DNA of 56,466 nucleotides, taken from positions 1-56,466 of the IMG/VR virus record IMGVR_UViG_3300020403_000012. One strand, written 5' to 3'. Position 1 is the stretch's first letter. Each line of letters starts with the position of its first letter. The notes beneath the pieces were generated by a model. It worked only from the letters and a program-made list of their open reading frames with translations, was not told the DNA's origin and ran no database searches. The position numbers and the translations under genes were made by a program. Source of the DNA: a virus (Duplodnaviria; Caudoviricetes). Positions 16,643 through 47,246 of this stretch are shown here, piece by piece.

Positions 16643-16649
16643 TATTTAT
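16643..16649 (-). promoter_or_regulatory. Late promoter ATAAATA overlapping the stop codon of the giant ORF
   Basis: GATAAATACAATAAGGA upstream of ATG 16626. Confidence 0.6.
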
Positions 16650-22600: not shown

Positions 22601-25600
22601 AATTGTTTCACTAGCAGTATACTGATCATTAAGTAATTCAAAAGTGTATGCTTGTGGCCTTCTAGTTGATATATTTAATAATCTAGTAGTGTTGTTGTCA
22701 AATATAGTTAGATTACTATCAAAAGTAGTTGAATCTATATTTCTTCCATTTACGCCAAGAACACATAGTTTGTTGTTACTAAAATCTAGCTTATAACCAA
22801 ATCTTTCATTCTTTGAAGATTTTGGTGCTTGCAATGTTTGTGTATTTTCAAATTGTAAACTTGAAGTATTGTATTTGTGTATGTATACAATACCTTTATC
22901 TGTTCCTGTATCTGTGCTATCTTCAATATCAGCACGATTGGCACCTACAGCAATATAATTTCCATTGTCACTAATAGCTAAACTAGTTCCCCATAAATCG
23001 TCAACTTCGGGAGCTGTCAATACTTCATAAAAAGCATATCTACCTTCTACTAATCTATAAACATAAACTTGGAATTCTTCTGTTGATGTGTTAAAAGCAG
23101 TAAATGCAAGCACTTCTCCATTTTTACTTACATCAATATTTTTACCTGCTTGATTTGTGTTATTAAAAACTGTACTATCATTATCGCCATCTATTGTAGT
23201 TGTATTAGGCAAATACCCAAACCTGTCTATACTAGAATCTATAGCTTCCCAAAGTGTTGCATTTGACGGATTGTCTCCTCCAGGCGGTATATCTACTTTT
23301 GCTTGGAACAACGATCCTTCATAATAAACTATCTCATCTATAGTGTATCCGAATATATTATTATGAACACCCCTATAATTTTCATCTTGTGTTCCTAAAA
23401 AGTCCATTTGAATATAAGTTGAATCGTATATGTATACCCGTCCGTTGTTGCCTTCACTACGTACAAATAATTTGTAATTTAGATCAGTTGTAAATGCAGT
23501 TTCTAATCCAATACCAAACTTTTCATCTGCGGTAGGAATACTAGATACAAATTGATCTAATAGAAAATAGTTATTGTCGAGCTGTTTTTTGTATACATAA
23601 ACAATACCTTGATTTGTTAAACCACTAGGTGTACCATCTCTGTCTGCAGGTATTTTGTAAACTTGTCTCCAGTCTTGGCTAGTGGTATGTATTGTACTAC
23701 CGTCGTCTTGTGTATCACGTAATGCACGCCAAAGTGTTTCTCTATCAGTAACAATATCTCCTGCTAAAATTGTTAGTGAAGGATCTATATCTCCTTTGTA
23801 TTTTGTTTTTACATTACTTGCAAGTGGAGCAGAAACAAACATAAACTGTCCGTCTTCTGAAAATTTAATTTTTTTACCAAAGCCACTATTACTATCGTGG
23901 AAACCATCAGGTACGTTTATTTCTTGTACAAAAACAAGTGCGAGTGTTTCGCTACTTCTTGTATAAATGTAAACTTTTTCGTCATCTGGTCTACCTGCTG
24001 CAAATATTGAATTTGATTTATTCACTGCAAAAGAAGATGCAAAACTTCCGTCTCCATCATCATTATTTTGTAATTCTGTTTTACCATCAAAGATTTTTTT
24101 ATTTCTAAAAACGCCAAATTTATCATTAGCTACATTATCAATCCAGATAGTATTGTTTTCATTTAATCCAAATTCATTTAAGTCATCATTAACATTATTA
24201 GGTGTTGAATATCTTTTAGATAGTAATTTAGTAACTAATCCTGTTGTACTATCTCTTAGGTCTACACGTTCTTCAGTAAATGTTGTGTTTGTTACCACAC
24301 TTACAATTGTGTCTGATATACTTGCAACTTTATAAAATCCATCAACTGCATCATCAATGAATTGCAAACCAAAAATATCATTGACTGATATTTCAGGAAC
24401 ACTGTCAAATAACAAATTAAAACCACTATCTGTTTTAATATATTCTACAACCCTATTAGGCACTACAACGTGCTGGTATATATTCCAACTATTTTTTTCA
24501 GAAGTTACCCAGATTATGTTATCAATTTCAACATTTGCAATATCCAGTTCTAAAATATCGTTTGGAGTCTTTGCTATAAAATCAACTTGATCTAAACTTA
24601 CATAGCCTGCTGTTTTGCTAAATTCAGTTGTATCATATTTTTTAGGAAAAGGATTATTTGTATAATTTTGTGGCTTTATATAAACTTTTGATTCTGGTAT
24701 TTCATAGACTAAATCTGTTCTTGAAATATCTTCCCTTGTCACCAATTCAATTAATTGTGGTTCTATTCTAAATTTAGTTTCGTCTAGTCTATACTCTAAT
24801 TCATCAAATGTATCTGTAGCACCGTATTGTGCATTTCTGATTGCCCATTCTTCATAAAAATTTAAACTGTCTTGATCGGCAGATCCTAATTTATCGAATA
24901 ATTTAGTTAAACTATTTTTACTTCCTTTTTCTTGTATAAATCCTTGATAAAATTTGTATTGACTTATATCATCTTCTATTATATTATTTAAATAGTTTCT
25001 TTTTTGATATCCTATAAGGTGTTGAGCAAGACGTTGCTGTTCACTATCAAAATTATCTGTATCCAAATCGTAAAAATCTGCAAATTGATTTATTTTATAA
25101 TCAAAGTTTGTTTTCAAACCGCTTGTTGGTCTTTCATCTAAACGATTCCATTTGTTATTTTCAAAAATAGAATTACCAGAAATAAATTCATTTGCTGAAT
25201 AATAAAACTCTTTATATTTTACAACATCACCAAGTGCATAGTCTTTCCATTGTTCCCATTCTGTAATTTTTGCTTGATCATATAAAAACCCAGGAATATT
25301 AAGATTGCCATTCCAGTTATCTGTTCTGTATCCTACAACCTTTAATCTTTCTTGTCTATATCCGCTGTTTGGGTTATAAATTGTATCATTAAAAACTGTG
25401 GTATTATCAATAATTACAGCGTGATCTTTTTGAATTAATCCTAATTTTGCAAAATAAACACTACTATCGTTTGCAGTTATTTCAACAGTATTTCCTGCAT
25501 CTCTGTTTATATTAATAGATAAATCTGCTACACTTGTACCATCAAGTGAAAGCACTTTATATCCAAATATATTATCTTTAATATTATCAACAACAAAATA

Positions 25601-28600
25601 ATCTTTAGAAAATTGTAATCTATTGGCGCCAGGACTTAATGTAATAATTGTGCCAACTGACCAGTTTTGTGTTGTATAAAATAAAAACTCTTTTATACTT
25701 AGTGTCCAGTTTTCAATAGCTTCAGTTTCTCTGTTGAAGTAATCAAAACTAAATCCTTTTTGTTTTAAATTGTGTTCGTAGCCTTGTAAAAAATCAACAA
25801 CTTCTTGTATTGTTGATAATACAGATCCATATTGCAATTCTTGTGTTTGTTCTGTAAAGTTTTTTCTTAATGTAGCAGTGGCACCACCTACAACAGGCAA
25901 AGTTTTGAGTGCAGTATAAAAACTTATATCAAAAGTATCGCCACTTGTATGATTAACATTTACTCTATAATATGCATTTTGAAACTTAACAATTTTTCCT
26001 GCAACATATTGTTTGCCTTCTGCCCAATTAATAAATCCTTCACTTATGCCGCCAACATTTATAGCAATATCGTTTTGTGATATAAATGGTAAGTTGTATG
26101 TAAACTTTGGAAATTCTTTGTCATACCCATTTATTTTAAATCCATTTGTTTGTTTTTCTATAATAACACCACTGTAAGTTACAACCTCTAAAGGCGAACT
26201 AGAAACTAAATCTATTTTATAATTTTCAAACGGTACAAATACATTTCCTTTGTTGCTTGGATTTTTACTATCTAAAACAAGTTTTAGTTTATCTTTGTCA
26301 GCAAATCCGCCAAGTTTAAAACTAATTTTTTGTTTTAAATTAGATAATTCTGTTACAAAATTATTGTATTCTGTAGTGATATCACTTGCCATATAATTGT
26401 AAATATAATTTACTAATCCAGTTGCTAATATGTTTTTGTTATTTGCATCAACTGTTGCAGGAAACTTTAAATTAGATAATTTAATTCTTCTTGTTTCATC
26501 TGCCTTGTATGAAAGTTGGTTTGTATAATCTCTACAAACACGTGATCTATCAAACCCTACGCCCAAAACTTTTGCTGGTCTATTTAACATAATTGCTTTT
26601 ATTAAAGCAAAAGGATATTCACTGCTCCTACGCCAAGCAGTTTCTACAGGCGTATGATCACCAAATTTAAAACGTTTCCCTTTTTGAGTTACAAAACTAA
26701 ACTCATTTACATAACCACTATCAAGAGGACTTAATACATTACCGCTTGAGTCTACAGGAATGTGTTTTGTCAATCCAGGTCTTATAAATCTTTTATCTGC
26801 TTTAACTTTTGCTGTTGCTCTAATAATACCTCTTTCAAGGTCACTCCACAAAACCAAATTGTCTTTAGTATAAGGCGCAGGTCCATATTTACTTTCCCAC
26901 CAGCTAGGCTTTACACTAAATCCTAACATCTCCCAAGGTCTTAAATTAGGACTATCAGTGTCATATGCATTGATATAAATTCCTCTCCAAAAGCCAGCTA
27001 ATGGTTGATTTGTTTTACTACTACCAAATCCATAATTATATGTAAATGTTTCAGTGTCTTTTACAAAACTATTATCTGTATAATCTGGATTGCCAGTTTT
27101 TGTTAACCATTTTACAAAATCCGAAATTAAAACATCATCAATGTCTTTTTTAGAAATTTGAGTATTTCTAAATTCTCCACCTATGTAATCATAGATGTTA
27201 AAAATATTTTCATCATATGGAACTTTGATGTTATTATATAAACGTTTTTCCATTTCTATGATTAGATCATCTCGATAATCATCATAACCAATTATGATAC
27301 TGCCATCGTGTCCTCTAATTGCAGTTTTGTTTTCACCATAAGTTGTATCTGTAAACTTTTCAGGTTTGTATGCAGGAAACAATCCTAATTTAGTAGGTGT
27401 TTCAGGTATATAACTACCATTTGTTGTTTCATATTCATATATTTCTATCTTATCATCAACTTGTAGTGAAAATGAAGTAGTAAATTGGACAAATCCTTCG
27501 CTTGAAAATGTGTAGTCTAAACCGTGGCAGGCTTGCGTATCGTTTACATAGACATATACTGCCTTTTCACTTAATTCGTCAAGTGTGAAAGGCATTGTTA
27601 ATGCATAAAATTTTAAATCTGAATCTAAAACAGTATATTCTATTTTTTTGTATGCACCTATGCCAACCATATCCGAACGATAAAAAGGCATAGTTTCTTT
27701 TTTGTTTGAAGCTAACGATAATAATATTTGATCTACTTGTTCTCTAATTGTTCCGTTTAGGTTCAATGTTTCTGCTTCTTGTATAAATGCCCTTTTAAGT
27801 TTGCTATATTCATTTTTAGCAAATGTCATTGCAGAAACAAGATTACTTTCTTTTTTGGCTAATGTATACAAAGGTAAATTTATTGGCCCGCTGTGTTGAA
27901 CAAATTTACGTCCATACGGTTTTACATTTCCTAAATCTCTCAAATTATTTGCACCAGGTTGGCGTCCTGAAAAATTTGGAACTTCTGTAGCTACACTATC
28001 AACGTGATCGGAAACTTCGCCTAAAGTAAATTCAGTAATGTTGTCATTCAAAGGATTACGTTCAAAGTTGTGAGGTGTTTCATAATATCCGTTACTATTT
28101 TTTGTAGCTTTTGAATGTGCTTTAATAACAATCACATCACTTGTTTTTAAATCAGTGTAAAACTGTACAAATTTATTACTGTTATTATCTGCATTAAAAG
28201 TATAGTCTACACCTTCGGTTTGAAATATGTTATTGACATAAACAAGAACTTTTAAGTCTGATAAATTATTACTATTATCAAACATATCAATAATATAATT
28301 ATTTGTAGATTGTTGACCAGTATATTTACGTATTACATATTGCTTACTTAGATTTGGTGCTTTTACCCATCCGTTGACATATTCAAAATCTATACCCTGA
28401 TGTAAATATTTTCTAAGATATCCATTTGATGTATCTTTTGTAAAAATAACATTGTTAATTTCATATGTAAACTTTTCTGAAAGTAAACTAAAATTAAAAA
28501 CAATATCGCCTGTATTTGTAATGTTTTTGTATGCTAAAGGAAAGCCTAATTCAGCATCATTTATACCTTCACCAACTTTATAATTATAAACTCTATTACC

Positions 28601-30415
28601 TGTGAAATCACTATTAGGATATGTAATCGAGTCTGCAAATGAAACTCCTGTATCGTCATACAAATCAAACAAAGGTGCTTGATTGACTCCTGTTTTATCT
28701 TGCGCTAATTTCCAAGTAGTACCATCGAAATAATACATATTTCCTGCTTGTTTATTTCCGCTTGTAATTAACACAGTATCATTTTCTAAAGGATTAGTAT
28801 CTGTAGTTTCAACTAAACTTATTTGGTTATTTCCTTTAAAATCAAAAAACTTAACTTGGAAGATTTTACCGTAGACAAATGGATCGGTATCATTGATAAA
28901 CATCACTCTTTGTCCGTCTGCAAGTTCTACTCCGTCAACACTGTATCCTGTTTTTCCTTCTATTTTTGATTTCACATCATTTGTATATGTGTCAATTAAA
29001 TCAATATTATCTTTTGCTCGAGTACCAAAATTATATAATTTTAAGCCTGCGTCAAATTCAATAATAGGACGTTTTGCTCGTAACTCTTCGTTCAAGTCGA
29101 ATACTTGATTGTTTAAACTAGCACTTAGTTCTATCACATCTTTATGGAACCAACGGTTGTACCTAGCCCAAGGATTTCTATCTGCACTAGCTTTGTTTAC
29201 AACAATATAATCCTTTGTGCCCGGAAAACTTTTTGCATCACTGTACGGAACTCTATCAAATCCATTTGTATCAAATGGTACCTGTGTATCATTTGTAAAA
29301 ATAGCAGGAACAATTAAATCTTGTGCATTAATTAATCTTATTTCATCTCCAACGCCTTCTACATAATAAACACCGCTTGCATATTTTTCAGGAGTTACAT
29401 TGCCAATAAAATACACTTTCATTCCGTTGCTAAAGTCCCACCCATCAGCCGTTGTATAAGTTCTTTTGTCTAAAATTTCCTCTTCAACATTGATAACAGA
29501 ATTTTCGTCTATATTTCCAATTATTAATCTAGTGCTTACATTTAAATCATACTGACTAACAAAATACAATGTATCAGGTGCATTTTCAGGAATAGTAAAC
29601 TCAAGAATACCCTTTTCAATATAATCCTGTGCAACAAAATCAGCTTGATTTAATAATGTGTCGTCTGTGTCAGGAAATAGTGTTACACCTTCTGTGTATG
29701 TTTGATTTAAGATAGAACTATCATCTAGTCTTTCATTTGGATCAACACCCCTATACAAAGCTATTGTCAAAGGATTATTAGGAGCATCGATTAAAAATCT
29801 ATAAGTTTGTCCTCTATATAGTTTTAAATTTGGATTTTTTGTAAGTCCATCAGGATGGAATAATAATGATATTTCATTAGCCTCTTCTAAAACTTCAACT
29901 CTATATGTGCTAATAATATTTTTACTCTGACCTTTAACTGGTATTTCGTAAGGACCGTCTGGTAACCAATAGTATTCTCTAAAATTTCCAAACTTATCAA
30001 GATTAATATTAGGATTCCAAGCATAATATTCTTGTTCATTTAGAGAACTTTGATTTGTTGTATTTGCATTATAGGTTTGCAACAATCCAAGATAGTCGTT
30101 ATAATCACTGTAATACTTGGTAGTTGATAAAAAATCTTCGTAAATACTTACAGGCTCAAACTGATAATCTTGTCTTGTTTTTGTCACATCATCAAGATAA
30201 TTATCTGTTACCTTAGAGGCTTTTGCTTCACGCTTACCTACAAATCCGTTTATTTTTTCAATAACACCCGGATTAGTCATTTGATCTAATGTACTAGTTA
30301 AAAACTTTTTGTTTTGCGGTGTTCTAAAAAATCTAGGAAGTTGCTCTACACTACTTCTTTCCTTATTTTTACCTCCTGGCAACGGAAGTTCGTTTTGATC
30401 ATCATTATAAGACAT
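16646..30415 (-). CDS. Giant (4589 aa) baseplate-associated structural protein, in the gp7-like position
   Basis: Uninterrupted 13.8-kb ORF coupled to gp6 by TAATG. Contains beta-propeller-like FG repeats, CBM5/12-like W...Y..G..V motifs and GDG.T..F repeats. Confidence 0.8.
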   Translation of the reverse strand: MSYNDDQNELPLPGGKNKERSSVEQLPRFFRTPQNKKFLTSTLDQMTNPGVIEKINGFVGKREAKASKVTDNYLDDVTKTRQDYQFEPVSIYEDFLSTTKYYSDYNDYLGLLQTYNANTTNQSSLNEQEYYAWNPNINLDKFGNFREYYWLPDGPYEIPVKGQSKNIISTYRVEVLEEANEISLLFHPDGLTKNPNLKLYRGQTYRFLIDAPNNPLTIALYRGVDPNERLDDSSILNQTYTEGVTLFPDTDDTLLNQADFVAQDYIEKGILEFTIPENAPDTLYFVSQYDLNVSTRLIIGNIDENSVINVEEEILDKRTYTTADGWDFSNGMKVYFIGNVTPEKYASGVYYVEGVGDEIRLINAQDLIVPAIFTNDTQVPFDTNGFDRVPYSDAKSFPGTKDYIVVNKASADRNPWARYNRWFHKDVIELSASLNNQVFDLNEELRAKRPIIEFDAGLKLYNFGTRAKDNIDLIDTYTNDVKSKIEGKTGYSVDGVELADGQRVMFINDTDPFVYGKIFQVKFFDFKGNNQISLVETTDTNPLENDTVLITSGNKQAGNMYYFDGTTWKLAQDKTGVNQAPLFDLYDDTGVSFADSITYPNSDFTGNRVYNYKVGEGINDAELGFPLAYKNITNTGDIVFNFSLLSEKFTYEINNVIFTKDTSNGYLRKYLHQGIDFEYVNGWVKAPNLSKQYVIRKYTGQQSTNNYIIDMFDNSNNLSDLKVLVYVNNIFQTEGVDYTFNADNNSNKFVQFYTDLKTSDVIVIKAHSKATKNSNGYYETPHNFERNPLNDNITEFTLGEVSDHVDSVATEVPNFSGRQPGANNLRDLGNVKPYGRKFVQHSGPINLPLYTLAKKESNLVSAMTFAKNEYSKLKRAFIQEAETLNLNGTIREQVDQILLSLASNKKETMPFYRSDMVGIGAYKKIEYTVLDSDLKFYALTMPFTLDELSEKAVYVYVNDTQACHGLDYTFSSEGFVQFTTSFSLQVDDKIEIYEYETTNGSYIPETPTKLGLFPAYKPEKFTDTTYGENKTAIRGHDGSIIIGYDDYRDDLIIEMEKRLYNNIKVPYDENIFNIYDYIGGEFRNTQISKKDIDDVLISDFVKWLTKTGNPDYTDNSFVKDTETFTYNYGFGSSKTNQPLAGFWRGIYINAYDTDSPNLRPWEMLGFSVKPSWWESKYGPAPYTKDNLVLWSDLERGIIRATAKVKADKRFIRPGLTKHIPVDSSGNVLSPLDSGYVNEFSFVTQKGKRFKFGDHTPVETAWRRSSEYPFALIKAIMLNRPAKVLGVGFDRSRVCRDYTNQLSYKADETRRIKLSNLKFPATVDANNKNILATGLVNYIYNYMASDITTEYNNFVTELSNLKQKISFKLGGFADKDKLKLVLDSKNPSNKGNVFVPFENYKIDLVSSSPLEVVTYSGVIIEKQTNGFKINGYDKEFPKFTYNLPFISQNDIAINVGGISEGFINWAEGKQYVAGKIVKFQNAYYRVNVNHTSGDTFDISFYTALKTLPVVGGATATLRKNFTEQTQELQYGSVLSTIQEVVDFLQGYEHNLKQKGFSFDYFNRETEAIENWTLSIKEFLFYTTQNWSVGTIITLSPGANRLQFSKDYFVVDNIKDNIFGYKVLSLDGTSVADLSININRDAGNTVEITANDSSVYFAKLGLIQKDHAVIIDNTTVFNDTIYNPNSGYRQERLKVVGYRTDNWNGNLNIPGFLYDQAKITEWEQWKDYALGDVVKYKEFYYSANEFISGNSIFENNKWNRLDERPTSGLKTNFDYKINQFADFYDLDTDNFDSEQQRLAQHLIGYQKRNYLNNIIEDDISQYKFYQGFIQEKGSKNSLTKLFDKLGSADQDSLNFYEEWAIRNAQYGATDTFDELEYRLDETKFRIEPQLIELVTREDISRTDLVYEIPESKVYIKPQNYTNNPFPKKYDTTEFSKTAGYVSLDQVDFIAKTPNDILELDIANVEIDNIIWVTSEKNSWNIYQHVVVPNRVVEYIKTDSGFNLLFDSVPEISVNDIFGLQFIDDAVDGFYKVASISDTIVSVVTNTTFTEERVDLRDSTTGLVTKLLSKRYSTPNNVNDDLNEFGLNENNTIWIDNVANDKFGVFRNKKIFDGKTELQNNDDGDGSFASSFAVNKSNSIFAAGRPDDEKVYIYTRSSETLALVFVQEINVPDGFHDSNSGFGKKIKFSEDGQFMFVSAPLASNVKTKYKGDIDPSLTILAGDIVTDRETLWRALRDTQDDGSTIHTTSQDWRQVYKIPADRDGTPSGLTNQGIVYVYKKQLDNNYFLLDQFVSSIPTADEKFGIGLETAFTTDLNYKLFVRSEGNNGRVYIYDSTYIQMDFLGTQDENYRGVHNNIFGYTIDEIVYYEGSLFQAKVDIPPGGDNPSNATLWEAIDSSIDRFGYLPNTTTIDGDNDSTVFNNTNQAGKNIDVSKNGEVLAFTAFNTSTEEFQVYVYRLVEGRYAFYEVLTAPEVDDLWGTSLAISDNGNYIAVGANRADIEDSTDTGTDKGIVYIHKYNTSSLQFENTQTLQAPKSSKNERFGYKLDFSNNKLCVLGVNGRNIDSTTFDSNLTIFDNNTTRLLNISTRRPQAYTFELLNDQYTASETIDYESYYTQPNGVVIARDLSGARDVEIEYQDNHLYLGFEGIDTNNNKRGIIFDLRANRDAVNWTTLGAATDFIDYNKMRGTFLYDRQTSDLITYLDAIDPIQGKIANAAERELDYKLYYDPAVYNIGSTSTGEVNPWGEEYVGKLLWDLNAVKWYNPYQKNTEYSSNVWNKVVPGYSVDIYEWVESTLLPEEWDAIADTTEGLSQGVSGSSKYGNTNYVRKNVYDPITGLFSSKYFYWVKNSKVVPVLENRTISADTVASLIEDPAGNGYRFVGLFGTDNFAVYNCQSLVKDEDTILHFEYYNTEEVLPNNLHREYSLITEGLSTSQPSDKIVDKWIDSLVGYDEQKTLLPVTTLSPARRYGILDNPLQTMFVNKTEALKQVIERINLVLAKNLIVDEFDISKLSSKDPVPTAVSRTYDTAIENETLLRFVGTSKIKQATLNVTITDGRLTNVVITEPGRGYIDPAFNSATETKRRGPSVLIQGSGTGAEIETYINNLGQVVEANIVNAGINYSQSTVITVRPFTALIQSDSTLLGFWTTYIWNQTEKEWVRTNNQNYDASLYWNYIDWYASGYNVETAIDYLVPGSYALEGLQDNLGDIVKVETIGSGGWLLLRKIDNQAEVDYTVNYETIGRQNGTLEFSRLLYSNEKFGFDKAVYDSALYDRDAGEEVRVILNAIKEDIFVDQLLVEWNKLFFSSVRYALAEQPNVDWIFKTSFIKAKHNVGQLSQKVTYKNDSLDSYLEYVNEVKPYSAKIREYVSAYENIEPTSTVVSDFDLPPRYDANAQKIIPEPAQVVDSQISNYSEFVTTYPQKNWFDNVGFEIKEIKITNGGSGWYSSPTVTISGGGGPTITGTTTLSGDTVTGIVVNTQGKKYITAPNITVTGSQSDTGTPVIAYAIIGNSPVRSTHMLIKFDRVSGSYLVTDLDVTENFTGTGSQIEFNVKWPISVKPADTKVVVDTVEQLSSDYTVENILDTTASYTRNFGRITFTNPPSNATSIVIKYKKDINYLSATDRINFYYNPTTGQFGKELSQLMDGVDYGGVQIDTATFGANTGFDSGDKFGVTDFDRFSGNLEDEVIILDGSTKTITASKPFESGIKYNIYYKSATAGLSDNPIRIDDPEFGTVGQDNTNAVMLTITGDGITSTFDINEDLLVTKDGDTIIIRKESSDGAFTPSGVIFDTEISGGSLTNLGNIFQTATGVASGDVVVDGDGFVTPTSSKGPEEQVPGQVLDTLDIQVIERVSDGQGAITVQNFKTDGISAEYYLEDLPANQDSVIVKLDNVVLDPTQYEIDYIEKILRISDSSLLPVGKHLSLLTIGTNGSSIIDSDTFTGDGKTRTFITGYNWVQNITGVVAINGVVTTNFTIDQAGPEYGENADRIIITLGEAPTLNSIVTYSLYLGTGTKYSQLAIDDTFDRSVSTQRSHTFGVNGAVTLPFNKKPISHNILVKVGDKFLEAGHVIKHTLTTDRTYEIDNWQFKDKTLIKQSDILVYINDSKIDPVNYVYDTINGRLDLTTRAVGKPGDVMRVYIIDSAEYFFVDTVVNLSNAGSLVDYESLDQINFTLNDSTNVIATVQEYTKSGDDVTIKLQGYVRDLILLSEKDNTPTLYFDDSTDFRIDSIDVVESDRLSLKDIPTEDVKIYVFSNHDTNEFERLSYCVNYDGTEAPEGSADYFAKNLLSKGHIVLNSIIPSANYAWVFLNGKFLTAQADYTLAEDGKTIILSNAPILNDQIEILYFTAPVSKKKFAFRIFKDMLNRYHYKRINSEREYRLSSPLNYYDLAIVLDSSDGLDEPNRQASIPGIIFIDGERIEYYEKDGNVLRQLRRGTLGTGVKELHNQGSRVFHQGTSETIPYQDTTYTQKFVGDGSTNEFILNWTPSSVNEFDVFVAGKRLRKAIPVDPNNTTADYNYYVYDETKDQDSPGGDVVVAPEFTIQNNILTVVNAPLNNTEVKIIRKTGKIWNDDGVSLANSKNTISKFLTDSTYKLAR

Positions 30416-40612: not shown

Positions 40613-41437
40613 ATGGCCAAAAGAATAAATTATCTTAACAATAAAGATATGTTAAAAGAAATACACAAAAGTAAAAGTACATTTAATAGTTATGTTGATC
40701 CTGTTTATGCAAATTACGATATCATTTTACCAAGTATAGAAAAAGTAAATGTTAGAACAATTGCTGAAGCAAAACGCAACAGAGCAAAAAAAATGTCAAC
40801 TGAAGCATATGAAATTGCTAAAGCAGAAAACAAGAAAGTTAAAATGTCAGAATTTACTGTAGATTATAGATCTATAGAAAAAACTGACTTAATTTTTAGA
40901 ATTATGATGTTTGATCATATTCCAGACGAACCTGGTAGAAAGAAAACACCAAAAACAATTGCTGATACTAAAACAAAACTTAATTTTCCTCCTTTTCAAC
41001 ATTACAAATTTGACGAAAATGACGTATTAGTATGTGTAGGTAAGTCTCATTGGACAGGTGGTATGGAAAATGGTTATTTTAGTAAAGATCACGGAAAAGC
41101 AACTAACGAACTTGCTCGTATGTGGATGAAACTTGTTGATCGTTATGCAACAAGAGGTAATGTACGTGGATACACATACAATGACGAAATGAAAGGGCAA
41201 GCAATATTACAACTTTCACAGATAGGACTACAATTTGATGAATCCAAATCCAATAATCCTTTTGCATATTATACCGCTGCTGTTACTAATAGTTTTGTAC
41301 GTGTCATTAATTTAGAAAAACGCAATCAAAACATTAGAGATGATATTCTTGAAATGAATAATCTCAACCCATCGCACACTAGACAACACGCAGGTGAATG
41401 GGAAGCCGCACTAAAACGTGAAAGAGAAATGAAATAG
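40613..41437 (+). CDS. gp55: Late-transcription sigma factor gp55
   Basis: NYLNNKDML, NVRGYTYNDEM...FDESKSNNPFAYYT...RVINLEKR. Immediately upstream of gp47/gp46. Confidence 0.88.
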   Translation: MAKRINYLNNKDMLKEIHKSKSTFNSYVDPVYANYDIILPSIEKVNVRTIAEAKRNRAKKMSTEAYEIAKAENKKVKMSEFTVDYRSIEKTDLIFRIMMFDHIPDEPGRKKTPKTIADTKTKLNFPPFQHYKFDENDVLVCVGKSHWTGGMENGYFSKDHGKATNELARMWMKLVDRYATRGNVRGYTYNDEMKGQAILQLSQIGLQFDESKSNNPFAYYTAAVTNSFVRVINLEKRNQNIRDDILEMNNLNPSHTRQHAGEWEAALKREREMK

Positions 41438-41491: not shown

Positions 41492-42505
41492 GTGTTTAAC
41501 AAAGCAGCTGTGTTTACAGACATTCATTTAGGTATGAAGGGTAACTCACGAGTACATAATCAAGACTGTGAGGATTATATTGATTGGTATATCGAAACAG
41601 CAAAGGCAAATAACTGTGAAACAGGTATTTTTTGCGGAGATTGGCATCACAATAGAAATAGTTTGAATCTAACAACTATGGATACAACTATTAAGTTATT
41701 AGAAAAGTTAGGTAATGCATTTGATAAGTTTTTTATGTTTGCTGGTAATCACGATTTGTATTACAAAGATAAGCGTGATGTAAAATCAACTGAATTTGCA
41801 AAACATATACCAGGTATTACTGTTGTAGATGAAATACAAGTTATCGAAGATGTAGCATTAGTGCCTTGGCTAGTAGGAGATGAATGGAAACGCATTGAAA
41901 AATTGCAGGCAAAGTACCTTTTTGGGCACTTTGAATTACCTAGCTTCTATATGAACGCAATGGTCCAGATGCCAGATCACGGAGATTTGAAAGCACAACA
42001 TTTTAAAAATCAAGAATATGTGTTCAGTGGACATTTCCATAAAAGACAAAAGCAAGGTAAGATACATTATATTGGTAATGCTTTTCCGCACAACTATGCA
42101 GATGCTTGGGATGACGACCGAGGTATGATGATACTGGATCGCGAAAACAATGCAGAACCAGAGTATATTAATTGGTTAGACTGTCCTAAATATAGAACAG
42201 TAAAGTTATCAAAGTTGATTGATGAGAAAGATACACTTATCAAGCCAAGTATGTATCTAAGAGTTACACTTGATATTGATATAAGTTATGAAGAAGCAAG
42301 TTATATAAAAGAAACATTTATTGATCAGTACAACTGTAGAGAAATAACACTAATACCACAAAAACAACTTGAAGAAATAAACACAGACTTGGATATAGAA
42401 CAATTTGAAAGTGTAGATCAAATTGTAAGTAATGAAATCCAATCAATTGACACAGATAGTTTTGATAAAAAACTACTTTTAGACATATACAATGAGCTAG
42501 TATGA
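41492..42505 (+). CDS. gp47: Recombination endonuclease subunit gp47 (Mre11/SbcD-like)
   Basis: Metallophosphoesterase motifs DIHLG, GDWHH, GNHD, GHFE, SGHFH. Confidence 0.95.
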   Translation: MFNKAAVFTDIHLGMKGNSRVHNQDCEDYIDWYIETAKANNCETGIFCGDWHHNRNSLNLTTMDTTIKLLEKLGNAFDKFFMFAGNHDLYYKDKRDVKSTEFAKHIPGITVVDEIQVIEDVALVPWLVGDEWKRIEKLQAKYLFGHFELPSFYMNAMVQMPDHGDLKAQHFKNQEYVFSGHFHKRQKQGKIHYIGNAFPHNYADAWDDDRGMMILDRENNAEPEYINWLDCPKYRTVKLSKLIDEKDTLIKPSMYLRVTLDIDISYEEASYIKETFIDQYNCREITLIPQKQLEEINTDLDIEQFESVDQIVSNEIQSIDTDSFDKKLLLDIYNELV

Positions 42506-44277
42506 TAAAAATTAAAGATTTAACAGTTAAAAACTTTATGAGTGTGGGTAATGTTACCCAAGCAGTTGACTTCAACAAGGAGCAACTTACTCTAGTGCTT
42601 GGTGAAAACTTAGATCAAGGAGGTGATGATACTGGATCACGTAACGGTACAGGTAAAACAACCATTATTAATGCATTGTCTTACGCATTGTACGGTCAAG
42701 CACTAACAAATATCAAGCGTAACAACTTGATTAACAAAACCAATAGCAAAGGTATGTTAGTTACGCTAAATTTTGAAAAAGGTGGGAACAAATATAGGAT
42801 TGAACGTGGTAGATCTCCTAATGTACTAAAATTCTACATAAACGATCACGAACAAGAAGAAGATGTTAACGAATCACAAGGCGATAGTAGAAAAACACAA
42901 GAAGATATTAGCAATTTACTTGATATGAGTCACGATATGTTCAAACACGTTGTTGCTTTGAACACTTACACTGAACCTTTCTTGAGTATGCGAGCAAATG
43001 ACCAACGTGCTATTATCGAACAACTACTTGGTATAACAATTCTTACAGAAAAAGCAGAATTGTTGAAGGAAAAAACAAAACAAACAAAAGATTTTATTAC
43101 AGAAGAAACATTAAAGATCAATGCAATAGAATCTAGTAATAAAAAAATACAATCTAGTATAGAAACACTTGCTGGTAGGCAACGTGCTTGGTTTTCAAAG
43201 CAAAAACAAGACATTGAAAAACTTGATGAAGCAATTGAGGAACTTGAAAAGCTAGATATTGATACAGAACTCGATAATCACGATAAATTAACTAACTGGA
43301 ACGAGTTAAACAACAAATTAACAAGTTTAAACAAAGAAAAAGCTACATTAGAGTCTGCATTAATGAGAGCAACCAAAAGTGTTGAAAAAGCAGAAAAAGA
43401 TGTAAAAGATCTTGATTCAGCAATATGTTATACGTGTGGACAAGAGCTTCACGCAGACAAAAAAGAAGAAATTGAAACAAGAAAAACAAAAGAATTAGCC
43501 GATGCAATTGCATATCAAACAGAAGTTGCTGGAAAATTAGAAAAAACAATGAATTTTTTAAATGAAATCGGCGATATTAACGGACGTCCTACAACATTTT
43601 ACGAAACAGCTAAAGAAGCATACGAACATAGAAACAACGTAGATAATCTTCGTCAAAGTTTGGTAAGTAAACAGCAAGAGGACGATCCGTATCAGGCACA
43701 AATAGACGACTTAACTAATACTGCACTACAAAAAATTGATTGGACAAACGTAAATGACTTGACAAGTTTACGTGATCATCAAGAGTTTCTCCTTAAACTC
43801 TTAACAAACAAAGATTCGTTTATACGCAAAAAGATTATAGATCAAAACTTAGCGTATCTAAACAACAGGCTAACAAATTATTTAGACAAATTAGGCTTAC
43901 CACATCAAGTTGTGTTCCAAAACGATTTATCAGTAGAAATTACACAACTAGGACAGGATTTAGACTTTGATAACTTGTCAAGAGGCGAACGAAATAGGCT
44001 AATATTAGGAATGAGCTGGGCATTTAGAGATGTTTGGGAGTCTTTGTATCAAGGAATAAACTTATTGTTTATTGATGAACTTATAGACTCTGGTATGGAC
44101 ACCGCTGGCGTTGAAAACTCGCTTGCTGTACTGAAAAAAATGGGCAGAGAGCGTGACAAAAACATATTCTTAATATCACATAAGGATGAATTAGTAGGTA
44201 GAGTCAATCACGTAATGAAAGTTGTAAAAGAAAACGGCTTTACCAATTACGAAAACGATGTTGAAATTGTAGAATGA
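42502..44277 (+). CDS. gp46: Recombination endonuclease subunit gp46 (Rad50/SbcC-like ATPase)
   Basis: KNFMSVGN, Walker A NGTGKTT, zinc hook CYTCGQ, LSRGE signature, Walker B LFIDE, LISH. Confidence 0.95.
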   Translation: MIKIKDLTVKNFMSVGNVTQAVDFNKEQLTLVLGENLDQGGDDTGSRNGTGKTTIINALSYALYGQALTNIKRNNLINKTNSKGMLVTLNFEKGGNKYRIERGRSPNVLKFYINDHEQEEDVNESQGDSRKTQEDISNLLDMSHDMFKHVVALNTYTEPFLSMRANDQRAIIEQLLGITILTEKAELLKEKTKQTKDFITEETLKINAIESSNKKIQSSIETLAGRQRAWFSKQKQDIEKLDEAIEELEKLDIDTELDNHDKLTNWNELNNKLTSLNKEKATLESALMRATKSVEKAEKDVKDLDSAICYTCGQELHADKKEEIETRKTKELADAIAYQTEVAGKLEKTMNFLNEIGDINGRPTTFYETAKEAYEHRNNVDNLRQSLVSKQQEDDPYQAQIDDLTNTALQKIDWTNVNDLTSLRDHQEFLLKLLTNKDSFIRKKIIDQNLAYLNNRLTNYLDKLGLPHQVVFQNDLSVEITQLGQDLDFDNLSRGERNRLILGMSWAFRDVWESLYQGINLLFIDELIDSGMDTAGVENSLAVLKKMGRERDKNIFLISHKDELVGRVNHVMKVVKENGFTNYENDVEIVE

Positions 44278-44540
44278 ATGACGATACACACGACAAACTT
44301 GTAAAAACATATTTGAACTACTTTGAAGCAAATGAAAAGTTTGAACAAGGTCCAAGCGAAAGAACAAAAAGATCTGCAAGGCGTGAGTTGCGTGAACTTA
44401 TGCGTCTTGCAAAAACTAGGCAACAAGAAATTAAAGACACCTATAATGACGTGCTTGCAGACATTAGAGCAAGCGGAAAATGGGCAATGAACAAAGGCAA
44501 ATCAAAAAAGACAAAGATGAATAAACAAGAAAATACATAG
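44274..44540 (+). CDS. Small basic hypothetical protein
   Basis: 88 aa, ATGA overlap with gp46, helical and basic. Confidence 0.7.
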   Translation: MNDDTHDKLVKTYLNYFEANEKFEQGPSERTKRSARRELRELMRLAKTRQQEIKDTYNDVLADIRASGKWAMNKGKSKKTKMNKQENT

Positions 44541-44543
44541 TAT

Positions 44544-44969
44544 ATGAGTTGGACATACAAAGGTAAAAAAGTAAACACTATACCAGATGAATACGAAGGC
44601 TTTGTATATCTAATTACAAACAAAAAGACAAAACAAAAATACGTAGGCAAGAAACTAGCAAAATTTAAAACAACCAAGCCACCATTAAAAGGCAAAAAGA
44701 ACAAACGTCGAGGCTACAAAGAAAGCGATTGGCGTGAATACTGGGGAAGTTCAGATAGACTGAACGAAGATGTACAAAAGCTAGGCGAAAAAAACTTTAC
44801 TCGTGAAATACTTTATTACTGCAAAAGCAGAGCAGAGATGAGTTACATTGAAGCACGAGAACAGTTTGACAGGCGTGTATTAGAAACAGACGAATATTAT
44901 AACGGTATCATCAATGTAAGAGTTGGTGGTTCGCAAAAACTACGCCAGGCACTACTAGAACACAAATAG
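44544..44969 (+). CDS. Small GIY-YIG family endonuclease (catalytic domain only)
   Basis: GFVYLITN...KYVGKK, YWGSS, FTREIL, the conserved E in YIEARE, and YYN. Confidence 0.85.
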   Translation: MSWTYKGKKVNTIPDEYEGFVYLITNKKTKQKYVGKKLAKFKTTKPPLKGKKNKRRGYKESDWREYWGSSDRLNEDVQKLGEKNFTREILYYCKSRAEMSYIEAREQFDRRVLETDEYYNGIINVRVGGSQKLRQALLEHK

Positions 44970-44974
44970 GCTAT

Positions 44975-45405
44975 ATAACGAGCTCTGAAAAAAATCCAAG
45001 ATCCAGCCGAGGTAATGCTCGTCGCCGGTGGTGTGGTATGCTCGCGTGAAGAAACATACGATAGGTTTTAAAGGATTGTGGCTCTGAGAAAAAGCAACCA
45101 CAGGGTAAGTGTTTTCGCTTGTTAGGGAATTACTGCCTTCCGTTGATATGACGAAGCTAGAGTAGGAGGATACAGGTCAACCGCCTCCGACAATGCAAAT
45201 TGAATCTCTTTTGACAAGATGGCTGAAGCGACTCGAATAATGCTCAAAAGCTACCTTCGCCCGGCAACGGGCGAATTATGACTTCACAATCTGAATAATA
45301 CTAAAAGCATATGCAAAGCATATGCCTTATTAATATTGTTATCAAGAACTAATGATTCGTGTTGAGTGATAACGAAAACACAGATGAACGTAGTTCATCT
45401 TGAAT
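44975..45405 (+). ncRNA. Putative large structured RNA (or structured DNA element); family not recognised
   Basis: No ORF and richer in G+C than its flanks. Contains many complementary segments, including TTCGCCCG-GCAA-CGGGCGAA (GNRA loop), GGAGG/CCTCC, TGTGG/CCACA, ACGAGC/GCTCGT and CTTGTTAG/TTGACAAG (G-U pairs). Confidence 0.55.
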
Positions 45406-45408
45406 AAA

Positions 45409-45415
45409 CTAAATA
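45409..45415 (+). promoter_or_regulatory. Late promoter CTAAATA
   Basis: CTAAATACATT upstream of ATG 45441. Confidence 0.55.
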
Positions 45416-45440
45416 CATTATACAGTTGGAATACGTGTGA

Positions 45441-47012
45441 ATGAAGTTAGCTGAACTAATATCAGAAGAAAAAATTATCATAAGAGAAGAAGCACCTGTG
45501 CAAGCATTGAATTCACAGAGCCTTAATGGTATTGATTACATATGGAAAAATGGAAAATATGTTAATGCAAAAGATAATTCACCTGCTCCAAAAAATATCA
45601 ATAAGAAATTAATTGCAAGTAGTAATAAAATTAACCAAATGCACTTTTCTAAAAAAGGAAGTGTGGTTTACAAGCCTGTACAAGTTGGAAACAGGCATAT
45701 TGTAAATCTTGCAGGTGAATCATATAGTTTTACCAAAAGTGCAGATGCTAAAAAATTTATGGATAACTTAGCCAGCGGCAAAAGCACACAAGCATCATTA
45801 AGCAAAATTGATCCTAAAAACGTTAAAAAGATTGGTACAAATGTACTAAGTAAAATCAATCTTGGTAGAGTTATGTCTGATGCTGAAATAAAAGTTGCTA
45901 AAGCTAGAAGTCAGTCAGCAACAAGATTACTTCAAAATACAAAATTACTTGCATTTTTTAAATTTTTAGGAGTTCTTGGTATTTCAGCACAGCTATTTCA
46001 ATCAATGATTATTAATTACGATACTGTGCGTAATGAACCAATAACTGACGACTTTACACAAGATGACAAAGAAGAATTACTTGCTGTTATTGAAGGATTG
46101 TGGGTAACACAAACTGTGGTAATATTACTGGCTGTGTTTAGGATAGTTAAAGTAGGAAGACTTATTACACTGTTGAGAGCACCAATACGTGCATTTCAAG
46201 CAGGTGCTGCCGCAACTGGTGTTGGGTTTGTTCCTTCGCTTATCAGTATGATAGTTACTGAAGCTGCATTTTGGGGAGCAACATATTTGTTAACCAGGCC
46301 GGCTGTTCAAATGAAGTTAGCAGAATGGTTAGCAGGAAGTTCAGTTGATTGGTTGTTCGAAGGCATTGGAAACACTGTTGATCTTGCATCACAGGCATTG
46401 GAAAAAATTACCAATGGTGCTTTTGGAGGTCCAACTTTAAGAGATGCATTATCATTTGAAAAAGGTGTTAAGAAAATGCCAACAGGTACTGCATATGCAT
46501 CAAGCGAATGGGCAAAACTTGCATTTCAGGATATGATATTTCCTCCTGATATGGAAAAAATTAAAGTTCCGTACTATGTTATGAGTGACAGAAGCAAAGG
46601 CATTTACGATGCATTAGACATTGATCCTACACAGCGTCCATCAAATACAATTCAAGCAAGGGAAGTATCTCGTAATGAACTTGGAGGCTTGTCAGATTAT
46701 GTTTTCAATTATACACCAGAGCTGGCAGATGAACTAAAAGACACACACGAAATTGTGGTTGTAAATGATCAAATGGGAGCTAGACCAGGAGGTTCTAATT
46801 CAATTTACTACCTAATGCCATCGGCAAAAGCATTAAAAGATTTCCAAGAAGGTACAATAACTACACTGCCACAGCCTGACAATAGAACTGTGACTAGACA
46901 AGGTCAACCAATTGAAAGAGAGCCTCAGCAAGATCCAACACAAGATCCTATAGTAAATATCGCTAATGATGCAATCAATAGTGTACCTGATAATAGACCA
47001 GGTCCTCAATAA
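45441..47012 (+). CDS. Hypothetical late protein with hydrophobic/TM segments
   Basis: 523 aa. Hydrophobic stretches LLAFFKFLGVLGISA, LWVTQTVVILLAVFRIV and GVGFVPSLISMIVTEAAFWGATYLL. Confidence 0.7.
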   Translation: MKLAELISEEKIIIREEAPVQALNSQSLNGIDYIWKNGKYVNAKDNSPAPKNINKKLIASSNKINQMHFSKKGSVVYKPVQVGNRHIVNLAGESYSFTKSADAKKFMDNLASGKSTQASLSKIDPKNVKKIGTNVLSKINLGRVMSDAEIKVAKARSQSATRLLQNTKLLAFFKFLGVLGISAQLFQSMIINYDTVRNEPITDDFTQDDKEELLAVIEGLWVTQTVVILLAVFRIVKVGRLITLLRAPIRAFQAGAAATGVGFVPSLISMIVTEAAFWGATYLLTRPAVQMKLAEWLAGSSVDWLFEGIGNTVDLASQALEKITNGAFGGPTLRDALSFEKGVKKMPTGTAYASSEWAKLAFQDMIFPPDMEKIKVPYYVMSDRSKGIYDALDIDPTQRPSNTIQAREVSRNELGGLSDYVFNYTPELADELKDTHEIVVVNDQMGARPGGSNSIYYLMPSAKALKDFQEGTITTLPQPDNRTVTRQGQPIEREPQQDPTQDPIVNIANDAINSVPDNRPGPQ

Positions 47013-47246
47013 TTACAACAGAGGCATCCTAGCGTTTTTTGTATTTTCAATATTGTCTTTGATAATTTTGCTAATGATTTCTTGATCTTCGATATCAGTG
47101 TCGTAGAGGAGTTTATCAACTGTTATACCTCCTCGCATATACCAGCTTAATCTGTAGATAGTGTCTTTTAGTCTTTTGATATCGTTTTCGTATTCATCGG
47201 CTAAATCCTGAACTTCACTATCATCTAGCAGGATTAGCCTCTGACG
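47013..47246 (-). CDS. Unannotated 77-codon frame (gp51-like chaperone extension), probably reached by a -1 frameshift
   Basis: RQRLILLDDSEVQDLADEYENDIKRLKDTIYRLSWYMRGG...NARMPLL-stop. It has no suitable start codon and opens at the slippery run. Confidence 0.7.
   Translation of the reverse strand, partial: RQRLILLDDSEVQDLADEYENDIKRLKDTIYRLSWYMRGGITVDKLLYDTDIEDQEIISKIIKDNIENTKNARMPLL

Follow-up and report, generated by a model that had tools for sequence, protein, structure and literature searches.

What is the function of the long stretch without open reading frames (ORFs) that follows a small GIY-YIG nuclease gene in the IMG/VR virus record IMGVR_UViG_3300020403_000012? Within the window, i.e., the whole 56,466-nt stretch of DNA that was analysed, the gap between the nuclease stop codon and the ATG of the next gene at 45441 spans 471 nt (44970-45440). 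At the level of 80-aa ORFs it is the longest gap, the second-longest being 222 nt (47013-47233). An earlier examination of the letters alone (hereafter the sequence-only reading) had described it as the sole long ORF-free stretch, beginning at the nuclease stop, and as richer in GC than its flanks. Both observations were confirmed, with GC contents of 0.445-0.485 across 44900-45299 versus 0.29-0.39 in the flanks, and 44970-45440 was the most GC-rich stretch of the window. No ORF of at least 60 aa was found in the gap, the largest (48 and 41 aa) both lying on the minus strand in different frames. Hidden coding was rejected, as no open frame was kept across 55 relatives. The same applies to a small ORF that would start at an ATG in the direct repeat R1 (see below) and stop at the TGA within the TGACY block, for start and stop share a frame in just 39 of 80 sequences. 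The analyses below show that the stretch is neither coding, nor a decayed gene, nor a DNA-only signal.

The gap lies at the 3' end of an operon with the gene order late-sigma, gp47, gp46, p88, nuclease. The nuclease (44544..44969, + strand, 141 aa) is a stand-alone SegE-type GIY-YIG protein, which matched Pfam PF19835 (SegE_GIY-YIG) over the full model (positions 1-123 of 123, E 7.9e-33, 113.8 bits, cutoff 25) and phrog_447 (E 3e-36). The motifs GFVY (residues 19-22) and KYVG (32-35) are visible in the translation, with the later R, E and N placed by eye only. A search by sequence found no solved relative. Pfam likewise found no domain beyond the catalytic one, in agreement with the earlier view that the protein is essentially the catalytic domain alone. 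The ORF directly upstream, p88 (44274..44540, + strand), encodes a small basic protein that had no match in Pfam or PHROG, but most relatives have it ahead of their nuclease gene. Across 16 aligned homologs its N-terminal helix is conserved, whereas conservation of its arginine-rich stretch was not strict.

Seg-type enzymes are free-standing GIY-YIG homing endonucleases, and the window nuclease has the SegE-type catalytic domain in common with these and with T4 EndoII; unlike the Seg-type homing endonucleases, however, it has no C-terminal DNA-binding module. A pattern search of IMG/VR gave at least 600 matches, and 593 of the 600 listed encode relatives of the nuclease. In the best 80 of these 593, the nuclease was 84-96% identical, gp46 in the same loci being less conserved (70-91%), and the nuclease gene followed gp46 in 76 of the 80. 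This combination of synteny and conservation above that of gp46 indicates that the nuclease behaves as a fixed gene in the clade and not as a sporadic invader. A mobile, sporadically distributed homing endonuclease was rejected on the same synteny and the missing DNA-binding module. The family of stand-alone GIY-YIG proteins of about 140 aa is widespread, occurring in 770 phage records, and in cultured phages it is found in contexts other than that of the uncultured clade.

Well over 100 phage contigs in IMG/VR carry the element itself downstream of the same nuclease gene, and 54 of 55 unique post-nuclease gaps matched its profile. Like the element as a whole, an 18-mer at 45362-79 occurs once in the window. 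Among the IMG/VR loci listed as 18-mer matches, 111 of 120 carried the element. Where the available sequence reached 500 nt or more upstream, the nuclease lay directly upstream on the same strand in 53 of 56 18-mer loci; in the other three it lay farther upstream, with an ORF inserted between. Querying 50,697 phage records by blastn with the element and one type-2 relative gave no match. An 18-mer scan of prokaryote genomes (596 Gb) yielded at least 121 loci, and 120 of the 121 listed were chance matches. The sole listed prokaryote locus with the element, L225, lies on a contig of 72.8 kb that was binned with a Crocinitomicaceae MAG.

Comparison of these relatives delineated a structured RNA domain that runs on the + strand from the nuclease stop to a terminator (44970..45330), as indicated by profile conservation, covariation and RNA-library contigs. 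It comprises approximately 330 nt with at least 10 helices and one loop-to-distal pseudoknot, as judged by covariation. At its 5' side, hairpin h1 (45005..45019; 45005-07 with 45017-19) showed both-sided changes in all three pairs, and hairpin Hc (45077..45102; TGTGG/CCACA), which has a conserved loop, in three of four. In the 13-bp hairpin Hd (45103..45138; 45103-16 with 45125-38), 10 of 13 pairs changed on both sides and 97.6% of alignment cells were paired. The Hd loop provides the 5' strand of the pseudoknot (CTTGTTAG/TTGACAAG; 45118..45124), which covaries with the 3' strand at 45212..45218 (both-sided changes in six of seven pairs), and an equivalent loop-to-distal pairing also covaries in type-3 relatives. 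Helix Pa (45159..45209; 45159-62 with 45206-09) was paired in 100% of cells, with both-sided changes in four of four pairs. It encloses a site of variable hairpin insertions and hairpin HA (45165..45188), which consists of GGAGG/CCTCC, an inner stem of 2-3 bp and a tetraloop. In HA, two of six pairs were double-changed and 100% of cells paired, and its loop varied without compensating changes elsewhere. Further downstream, the 8-bp hairpin Hmid (45256..45275), capped by a GCAA loop, was present as 52 distinct hairpins in 83 unique sequences. Support was weak for the small hairpin Hx (45141..45153; 45141-43 with 45151-53), in which two of three pairs changed on both sides and only 77% of cells paired. 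A long-range helix, LR, would join 45073..45076 to an invariant ATCT at 45289-92. It was paired in 94.3% of cells, and its changes were one-sided only (A/G opposite U), which is compatible with the helix but does not prove it. The unpaired blocks within this fold were strongly conserved and some were invariant. Two helices suggested by RNAalifold, GGTCA/TGACY and TAGG/TCTA, were dropped, as the loop varies (TCAA, ATGA, CTGA, ACAA and others) without compensation in the wider family.

In the covariation alignment A3 (22 sequences), from which the scored structure was itself partly derived, 95.0% of cells paired versus 81.2% in shuffles, double changes occurred in 36 pairs versus 23.0 +/- 2.5, and the covariation score was 0.387 versus 0.151, with slid controls at 0.04-0.09. 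None of 500 shuffles matched the pairing, double-change or covariation value. Folding energy across 44965-45300 was no better than chance (MFE z-scores of +1.14 and -0.30 for the + and - strands, respectively). The eight helices quoted in the sequence-only reading were all located where it had placed them, and covariation upheld TGTGG/CCACA, CTTGTTAG/TTGACAAG, GGAGG/CCTCC and the 8-bp GCAA hairpin. It did not support ACGAGC/GCTCGT, CAGCC/GGCTG and TGAAG/CTTCA, in which only 63-70% of cells pair; GTATG/CATAC had zero double changes and letters in just 11 of 22 alignment rows. The proposed + polarity was borne out by Hmid, whose pairs across the 83 unique sequences comprised 663 Watson-Crick, 72 G-U and just one A-C, and U-G pairs in Hd and HA were invariant. 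Covariation among relatives on the + strand thus substantiates the earlier proposal of a conserved multi-helix element, and the stretch is very probably a real structured RNA of a clade of uncultured marine T4-like phages.

Flanking Hmid are two direct repeats, R1 (45231..45243), which consists of ACTC, a heptamer (45235-41) and GC, and R2 (45289..45301), which consists of ATCT (the LR 3' strand), a heptamer (45293-99) and AC. The two heptamers were identical to each other in 165 of 168 loci, across which 16 heptamer sequences occurred; that is, they change from lineage to lineage, but stay identical within a locus. The R1 and R2 columns were each other's top mutual-information partners. No third covarying column was found, nor any complementary cis strand at a consistent position. 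Complements of the heptamers were weakly enriched downstream, though scattered over inconsistent positions (66 of 99 versus 55 +/- 2.9 in shuffles). Such parallel co-variation of two direct repeats is an unusual signal and suggests that a partner recognizes both of them; we know of no counterpart to identity-locked twin heptamers in riboswitches or processive-antitermination RNAs. Neither the 18-mer nor the sequence context of the heptamers serves as a repeated promoter-like signal, since each has a single copy in the window.

Could that partner be the adjacent nuclease, with the RNA as its cofactor (ribonucleoprotein scaffold or guide) and the heptamers as specificity determinants? Such an RNP or RNA-guided nuclease had been suggested by the sequence-only reading. 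Consistent with it are the strict same-strand linkage in the 18-mer loci, with the nuclease adjacent in 53 of 56 and farther upstream in the rest, the nuclease's lack of a DNA-binding domain, its greater conservation relative to gp46 in the same loci, and the variation of the heptamers between lineages. The same small nuclease family, however, is present in those 770 phage records, and in the three cultured phages examined (Melnitz, ACG-2014d and phiN3) the next annotated CDS begins about 30-150 nt after the homolog, leaving no room for the element. The Melnitz locus, the one scanned with the element profile, gave no match. Unrelated ORFs separate nuclease and RNA in five relatives (L039, L069, L078, L103 and L172). 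Moreover, nucleases that are 84-96% identical occur across lineages whose heptamers differ at four of seven positions. As for the variable guide-like segment that was to be sought between conserved helices, the only lineage-variable single-stranded parts are the two 7-nt repeats, and a guide would need more than 7 nt. Because close relatives of the nuclease in cultured phages lack the RNA, guidance or scaffolding of the enzyme by RNA is very unlikely. The case also cautions against inferring an RNP whenever a nuclease gene and an RNA lie side by side.

The 3' end of the domain is marked by a terminator-like stem-loop, H_term (45307..45325), which was present as 72 distinct hairpins in 96 unique sequences and whose pairs are almost all Watson-Crick. 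It scored as terminator-like on both strands. Common type-2 relatives have a T-rich tract after H_term in the alignment, and in the window this tract is poor on the + strand and better on the - strand. Beyond it lie the hairpin formed around the 18-mer (45359..45381), in which the outer stem (45359-63/45377-81) and the inner 2-bp stem (45366-67/45372-73) both covary beneath a GNNA loop, and H_3 (45382..45400), a perfect palindrome of variable sequence. H_3 took the form of 56 distinct hairpins in 98 unique sequences, with 819 Watson-Crick pairs, no G-U and one A-C. A conserved alignment block 25 nt upstream of the ATG at 45441 contains the box CTAAATAC (45409..45416, + strand), which we take to resemble a T4 late promoter. 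A scan of the + strand across 44970-45330 found no sigma-70-type promoter.

Being almost purely Watson-Crick, H_term and H_3 could form equally from either strand, or in the DNA itself. The stretch might thus act at the DNA level, as a replication origin or as a recombination or nuclease target, with cruciforms or single-stranded DNA hairpins, and with R1 and R2 as iteron-like or crossover sites. Direct repeats in iterons and crossover cores are identical within a genome and differ between genomes. The presence of the element and of the 18-mer as single copies in the window would fit such a role, as would a neighborhood of recombination nucleases (gp46/gp47) and a DNA nuclease. The core helices, however, need G-U pairs, which become A-C on the opposite strand, and the loop-to-distal pseudoknot with its six of seven covarying pairs is an RNA-type feature. 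The spacing between R1 and R2 varies (20-85 nt from R1 to the TGACY block), so that there is no helical phasing, and the stretch was found in RNA libraries. Taken together, these data make a DNA-level element distinctly improbable.

The RNA-library evidence consists of assembled contigs, which carry no information on ends, strand or level and could include DNA carry-over. Such contigs covered the element in all four RNA libraries examined (four studies), at 44834-45401, 44845-45160, 44861-45130, 45104-45300 and 45135-45478, the first three running from the nuclease 3' end into the element, and it was present in both ocean and salt-marsh metatranscriptomes. Within runs, contig depth over the element was equal to or greater than that over neighboring genes, although contig depth cannot rank genes. 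The region 45546-46200 had no RNA-contig cover in any of the four runs, which is uninformative because relatives share only about 50% identity in that gene.

The window as a whole gave no match in Rfam 15 at the gathering score, and ARAGORN found no tRNA or tmRNA genes, in line with the earlier failure to recognize a tRNA, tmRNA, RNase P or group I/II intron. Apparent likenesses to a group I intron, a TPP riboswitch, a C/D-box RNA, tmRNA or lambda-N/nut sites were dropped, as no tool result favored any of them and the Rfam scans were negative. Relatives, however, carry three different 5' domains on one shared 3' core, and one of these domains is RF01718 (Polynucleobacter-1). In type-3 relatives, RF01718 sits between the homologous nuclease, which it follows directly, and the shared core, with scores of 105.9 (L099), 79.1 (L131) and 59.4 bits (L162) where the gathering score is 37. 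Scanning 44800-45600 at E values up to 10 revealed no RF01718 and only two chance-level snoRNA matches (E 4-10), and a sequence profile of the RF01718 domain matched 10 of 214 loci, the window not among them. A match to a known family was to have removed the novelty of the element; the window itself belongs to none, whereas a sister subfamily has RF01718 in its 5' half. The Polynucleobacter-1 motif came from aquatic metagenomes, and the available text of its description grades it as probably RNA and probably cis-regulatory, with its riboswitch status left open (Weinberg et al., 2010; PMC2864571). This orphan motif of 2010 thus gains a genomic home: it is one of the 5' domains that can precede the common core downstream of a phage GIY-YIG gene.

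How might such an RNA act? The best explanation overall, to which we assign a probability of roughly 0.4, is a conserved folded RNA at the early operon's 3' end that controls termination or read-through in cis; the termination mechanism itself is put forward tentatively. Positions 44970 to about 45330 would be co-transcribed with the GIY-YIG gene on the + strand, and the transcript would fold into the ~330-nt RNA, with the Hd loop pseudoknotted to 45212-18 and Pa closing over HA. GNRA-capped Hmid would lie between the identical heptamers, and the intrinsic terminator H_term would end the domain. Acting on its own transcript, the RNA may set whether polymerase stops at H_term (perhaps H_3) or reads on into the variable late gene, whether by means of a fold that senses a ligand or factor or through processive antitermination. 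The strand that would close the fold, i.e., ATCT with R2, sits 7 nt before the terminator stem, like a riboswitch expression platform. In favor of cis control, the conserved fold is followed at one position by a terminator hairpin in those 72 sequence variants, with a T-tract in type 2, and the combination of aptamer fold and intrinsic terminator by which riboswitches are recognized is present in the covariation-supported fold and this hairpin. The 5' domains are modular, and one of them, RF01718, is rated probably cis-regulatory in the available text (PMC2864571). Against it, no ligand, factor or mutually exclusive antiterminator pairing was found, and the + strand T-tract of the window terminator is poor. 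Past the terminator, the next gene is also provided with a late-promoter-like box and a ribosome-binding site of its own, so that its expression would not depend on read-through. A length of ~330 nt is, in addition, large for a riboswitch.

A stable trans-acting noncoding RNA, derived from the 3'UTR or separately processed and serving as scaffold, sponge or RNA-only assembly, is possible and nearly as likely as cis control of termination or read-through. With at least 10 helices, a pseudoknot and conserved unpaired blocks, the domain resembles large noncoding RNAs more than leaders. A stop codon precedes it and a terminator, which would merely make its 3' end, closes it. It was found in all four RNA libraries examined, and its two identical single-stranded heptamers are candidate binding sites. 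The RNA contigs, however, show no discrete ends, the sigma-70-type scan gave it no promoter of its own between stop codon and fold, and a search for a target or complementary sequence found none. Position at the operon 3' end and numerous stable hairpins would equally suit a structured 3'UTR that only shields the operon mRNA from 3' exonucleases. For such passive stabilization, however, hairpins would suffice; invariant unpaired blocks, the pseudoknot and identity-locked heptamers would be superfluous, and different lineages have retained elaborate alternative 5' domains, which renders it improbable. A long shot is a modular RNA device, in which three interchangeable 5' sensor domains would sit on a pseudoknotted output core and the heptamers would be lineage-specific addresses, both read by one partner. 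If this were true and the partner were the GIY-YIG nuclease or p88, it would constitute a new RNA-specified nuclease or antitermination system.

Cis control of termination or read-through invites comparison with terminating riboswitches and with HK022 put and Bacillus EAR, which are processive-antitermination RNAs. Like these, the window RNA has a complex, conserved, pseudoknotted fold within an operon transcript, and a terminator right after the fold with the closing strand a few nt before the stem. It differs in its ~330-nt length and in following a coding gene rather than forming a leader. The likeness rests on fold and terminator; an antiterminator helix, a ligand and polymerase contact are not among the shared features. 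RF01718 occupies the same genomic slot after a nuclease homolog in type-3 relatives, but its 141-nt model does not include the core of Hd, pseudoknot, Pa, HA, R1, Hmid, R2 and terminator, and the window itself does not match it. GOLLD, ROOL, HEARO and IMES, all in Rfam and none with a model matching the window, are alike in large size, many helices, phage or marine origin and detection by covariation first. With the RNA described here, which is smaller than GOLLD or ROOL and bound to one syntenic slot, an abundant clade of uncultured marine phages gains a structured RNA family that is both large and well supported.

The window, an IMG/VR virus record of 56 kb with an estimated completeness of 16%, encodes on its + strand a late-transcription sigma factor (40613-41437; phrog_12791, E 1.3e-78), a gp47-like SbcD (41492-42505), a gp46-like SbcC (42502-44277), a basic 88-aa protein without Pfam or PHROG family (p88, 44274-44540) and a 141-aa GIY-YIG protein (44544-44969), whose match to Pfam PF19835 SegE_GIY-YIG covers the whole profile (E 7.9e-33) and which also matches phrog_447 (E 3e-36). 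A 471-nt ORF-free gap separates this nuclease gene from that of a 523-aa protein of no family (45441-47012, +). The window is tightly packed, and this is its longest gap as well as its GC peak (0.445-0.485 vs about 0.30-0.39 in the flanks); the sequence-only reading was therefore correct in singling out an ORF-free, GC-rich stretch after the nuclease. The p88 protein has a conserved N-terminal helix, always lies between gp46 and the nuclease, and is a candidate nucleic-acid binder, though its arginine-rich stretch is not strictly conserved. Elsewhere, the minus-strand gene block contains a single 4,589-aa ORF (16646-30415).

At least 593 relatives of the nuclease were confirmed among the 600 IMG/VR pattern matches listed. 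In the best 80 of these, the nuclease was 84-96% identical and thus more conserved than gp46 (70-91%), which lay upstream in 76 loci, the upstream sequence of the other four being no longer than 1,037 nt. Within this clade the nuclease is a fixed, syntenic gene and not a sporadic invader. Almost all relatives' loci have an ORF-free stretch after it, with 300-500 nt in most between the stop codon and the 18-mer (45362-79), the most conserved segment, and an iterated nhmmer profile matched 54 of 55 unique post-nuclease gaps. The 18-mer occurs in at least 120 IMG/VR loci, and the element (44970 to ~45330, +) was present in 111 of the 120 listed. Where at least 500 nt of upstream sequence was available, the nuclease was directly upstream on the same strand in 53 of 56 listed loci; in the remaining three it was further upstream, with an inserted ORF between. 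Such ORFs between nuclease and RNA were seen in L172 (reverse strand), L039, L069, L078 and L103, that of L172 showing, by eye, repeats resembling a homing-endonuclease DNA-binding module. The operon upstream of the element is 70-96% identical among relatives, and homologs of 45441-47012 are hypervariable (23-61% identity or no match; ORFs of about 160 to 563 aa), so that the element marks the border between a conserved and a variable region.

The window contains one copy of the element. Searches with Rfam, ARAGORN and blastn against cultured phages gave no match in the window, and the element was absent from cultured phages. Among the 121 18-mer matches listed in prokaryote genomes, one was a real element and 120 were chance. 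This sole carrier (L225), a GTDB contig of 72,803 nt titled Crocinitomicaceae MAG, probably represents phage sequence that was binned with a Flavobacteriales MAG, which may hint at the host.

Folding energy alone gave no signal (z-score +1.14 on the + strand, -0.30 on the - strand). Structure was assessed on an alignment of 22 type 1-like members, the window's own subfamily, whose nucleases are 56-100% identical. In a model of 14 helices including a pseudoknot, 95.0% of cells were paired vs 81.2% in shuffles, 36 pairs changed on both sides vs 23.0 +/- 2.5, and the covariation score was 0.387 vs 0.151; none of 500 shuffles reached any of these measures, and slid controls scored 0.04-0.09. Double changes were found in 10 of 13 pairs of helix Hd (45103-16 with 45125-38), 4 of 4 of Pa (45159-62 with 45206-09), 3 of 4 of Hc (TGTGG/CCACA) and 3 of 3 of h1 (45005-07 with 45017-19). 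The CTTGTTAG/TTGACAAG pairing proposed from sequence alone was borne out as a pseudoknot between the Hd loop and 45212-18, with double changes in 6 of 7 pairs. Hc, HA (GGAGG/CCTCC) and the GCAA hairpin Hmid (45256-75), all proposed at the same time, were among the best-supported helices, as were the stem and mini-hairpin built on the 18-mer. Three other early proposals, ACGAGC/GCTCGT, CAGCC/GGCTG and TGAAG/CTTCA, paired in only 63-70% of cells and failed in more distant members. For a further one, GTATG/CATAC, there were no double changes, and just 11 of the 22 rows had letters at these positions. The data are compatible with long-range pairing of 45073-76 with the invariant ATCT at 45289-92, where the changes are of wobble type only. 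Two RNAalifold helices proposed from invariant blocks were discarded after wider sampling. Between HA and the Pa 3' strand, relatives L002, L005, L019, L134 and L166 carry AT-rich hairpins of about 35-60 nt and several different sequences; the window (about 45189-45202) has none.

Across the family, Hmid comprised 663 Watson-Crick, 72 G-U and one A-C pair in 52 sequences. Because of these G-U pairs, and of invariant U-G pairs in Hd and HA, the core folds only as + strand RNA. The two distal palindromes are strand-neutral: H_term (45307-25) is almost purely Watson-Crick in 72 variants, with a T-tract after it in type 2, the common form, and H_3 (45382-400) is a perfect palindrome with 56 variants in 98 unique sequences (819 Watson-Crick, no G-U and one A-C pair). 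H_3 has a T-run after it on the minus strand, on which it may act as a terminator; alternatively, it may be a site at the DNA level. A purely DNA-level role, as origin or target sites, is possible for the two palindromes and the 18-mer but hard to reconcile with a G-U-dependent core and a pseudoknot. No conserved open reading frame was found across relatives. Metatranscriptome contigs from four runs in four studies lie on gp46, nuclease and element; three cross from the 3' end of the nuclease gene into the element, and another spans 45135-45478. Because they are assembled, these contigs demonstrate continuity and occurrence in RNA libraries but carry no information on ends, strand or level, and they may derive from DNA carry-over.

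The family comprises three subfamilies with different 5' domains and a common 3' core, namely an Hd-type hairpin with pseudoknot-forming loop, Pa, HA, repeat R1, Hmid and a TGACY block, then ATCT with repeat R2, the terminator, the 18-mer hairpin and H_3. Covariation of the pseudoknot extends to type 3, where seven sequences hold four different complementary combinations of loop and partner. As its 5' domain, type 3 has Rfam RF01718, Polynucleobacter-1 RNA, which sits between the common core and the homologous nuclease gene in L099:1177-1311 (-), L131:1168-1312 (-) and L162:416-560 (+), with scores of 105.9, 79.1 and 59.4 bits (gathering score 37); a fragment cut by a locus end matched additionally. 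A sequence profile of this domain found it in 10 of 214 loci, the window not among them. The discoverers considered Polynucleobacter-1 probably an RNA and probably cis-regulatory, left its riboswitch status open, and reported it from Burkholderiales, fresh water and estuary samples (PMC2864571). A full-text search for the motif found only this 2010 paper. With its place in type 3, the orphan motif gains a phage context.

Hmid lies between two copies of one heptamer, the first preceded by ACTC (together 45231-41) and the second by ATCT (together 45289-99). In the 168 loci passing a screen that demanded at least 6 of 7 matches between copies, the copies were identical in 165 and one base apart in three, with 16 different heptamers; the pair was present in 100 of 100 representative sequences. 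By mutual information, each variable heptamer column partners its counterpart in the other repeat rather than a complementary column. A third, complementary strand in cis, a conserved small ORF and additional copies within the window were all looked for and not found. This parallel covariation implies either a copying process or a partner that reads the two sites, for which a lineage-specific protein, a nucleic acid acting in trans and an overlooked alternative pairing are candidates.

The nuclease itself is nearly constant between lineages with differing heptamers, which argues against the earlier proposal that the RNA is a guide or RNP partner of the adjacent GIY-YIG protein. That proposal is weak also because the nuclease is one of many stand-alone GIY-YIG proteins of about 140 aa that form a large family (770 phage records, often mislabelled NAD synthetase). 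In the cultured phages Melnitz (nuclease 68% identical), ACG-2014d and phiN3 about 30-150 nt separate the nuclease gene from the next one, and a profile scan of the Melnitz locus, the one scanned of the three, did not find the element. Unrelated ORFs can, moreover, separate nuclease from RNA. We therefore consider this role unlikely.

The fold would form the 3' part of an early or middle operon transcript. Its closing strand, ATCT plus R2, lies 7 nt ahead of the terminator stem, and 3' of the terminator are a protein-site-like hairpin, a palindrome and a late-promoter-like box of the next, highly variable gene. We therefore favour a cis-acting RNA that would set termination versus read-through at the early/late boundary. 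With almost equal likelihood, this transcript would instead yield a stable trans-acting ncRNA. For the favoured cis-acting RNA, the interchangeable 5' domains may be alternative input modules.

Taken together, these results describe a real RNA that is abundant and rich in structure, with heptamers that provide an odd, testable signal. It matches no Rfam family in the window and was not found in full-text searches for GIY-YIG with RNA; it represents a new family within a known general kind of structured RNA, and one of its subfamilies absorbs a known orphan motif. The favoured cis-acting RNA may be sensor-like or put/EAR-like, put (HK022) and EAR (Bacillus) being processive-antitermination RNAs.
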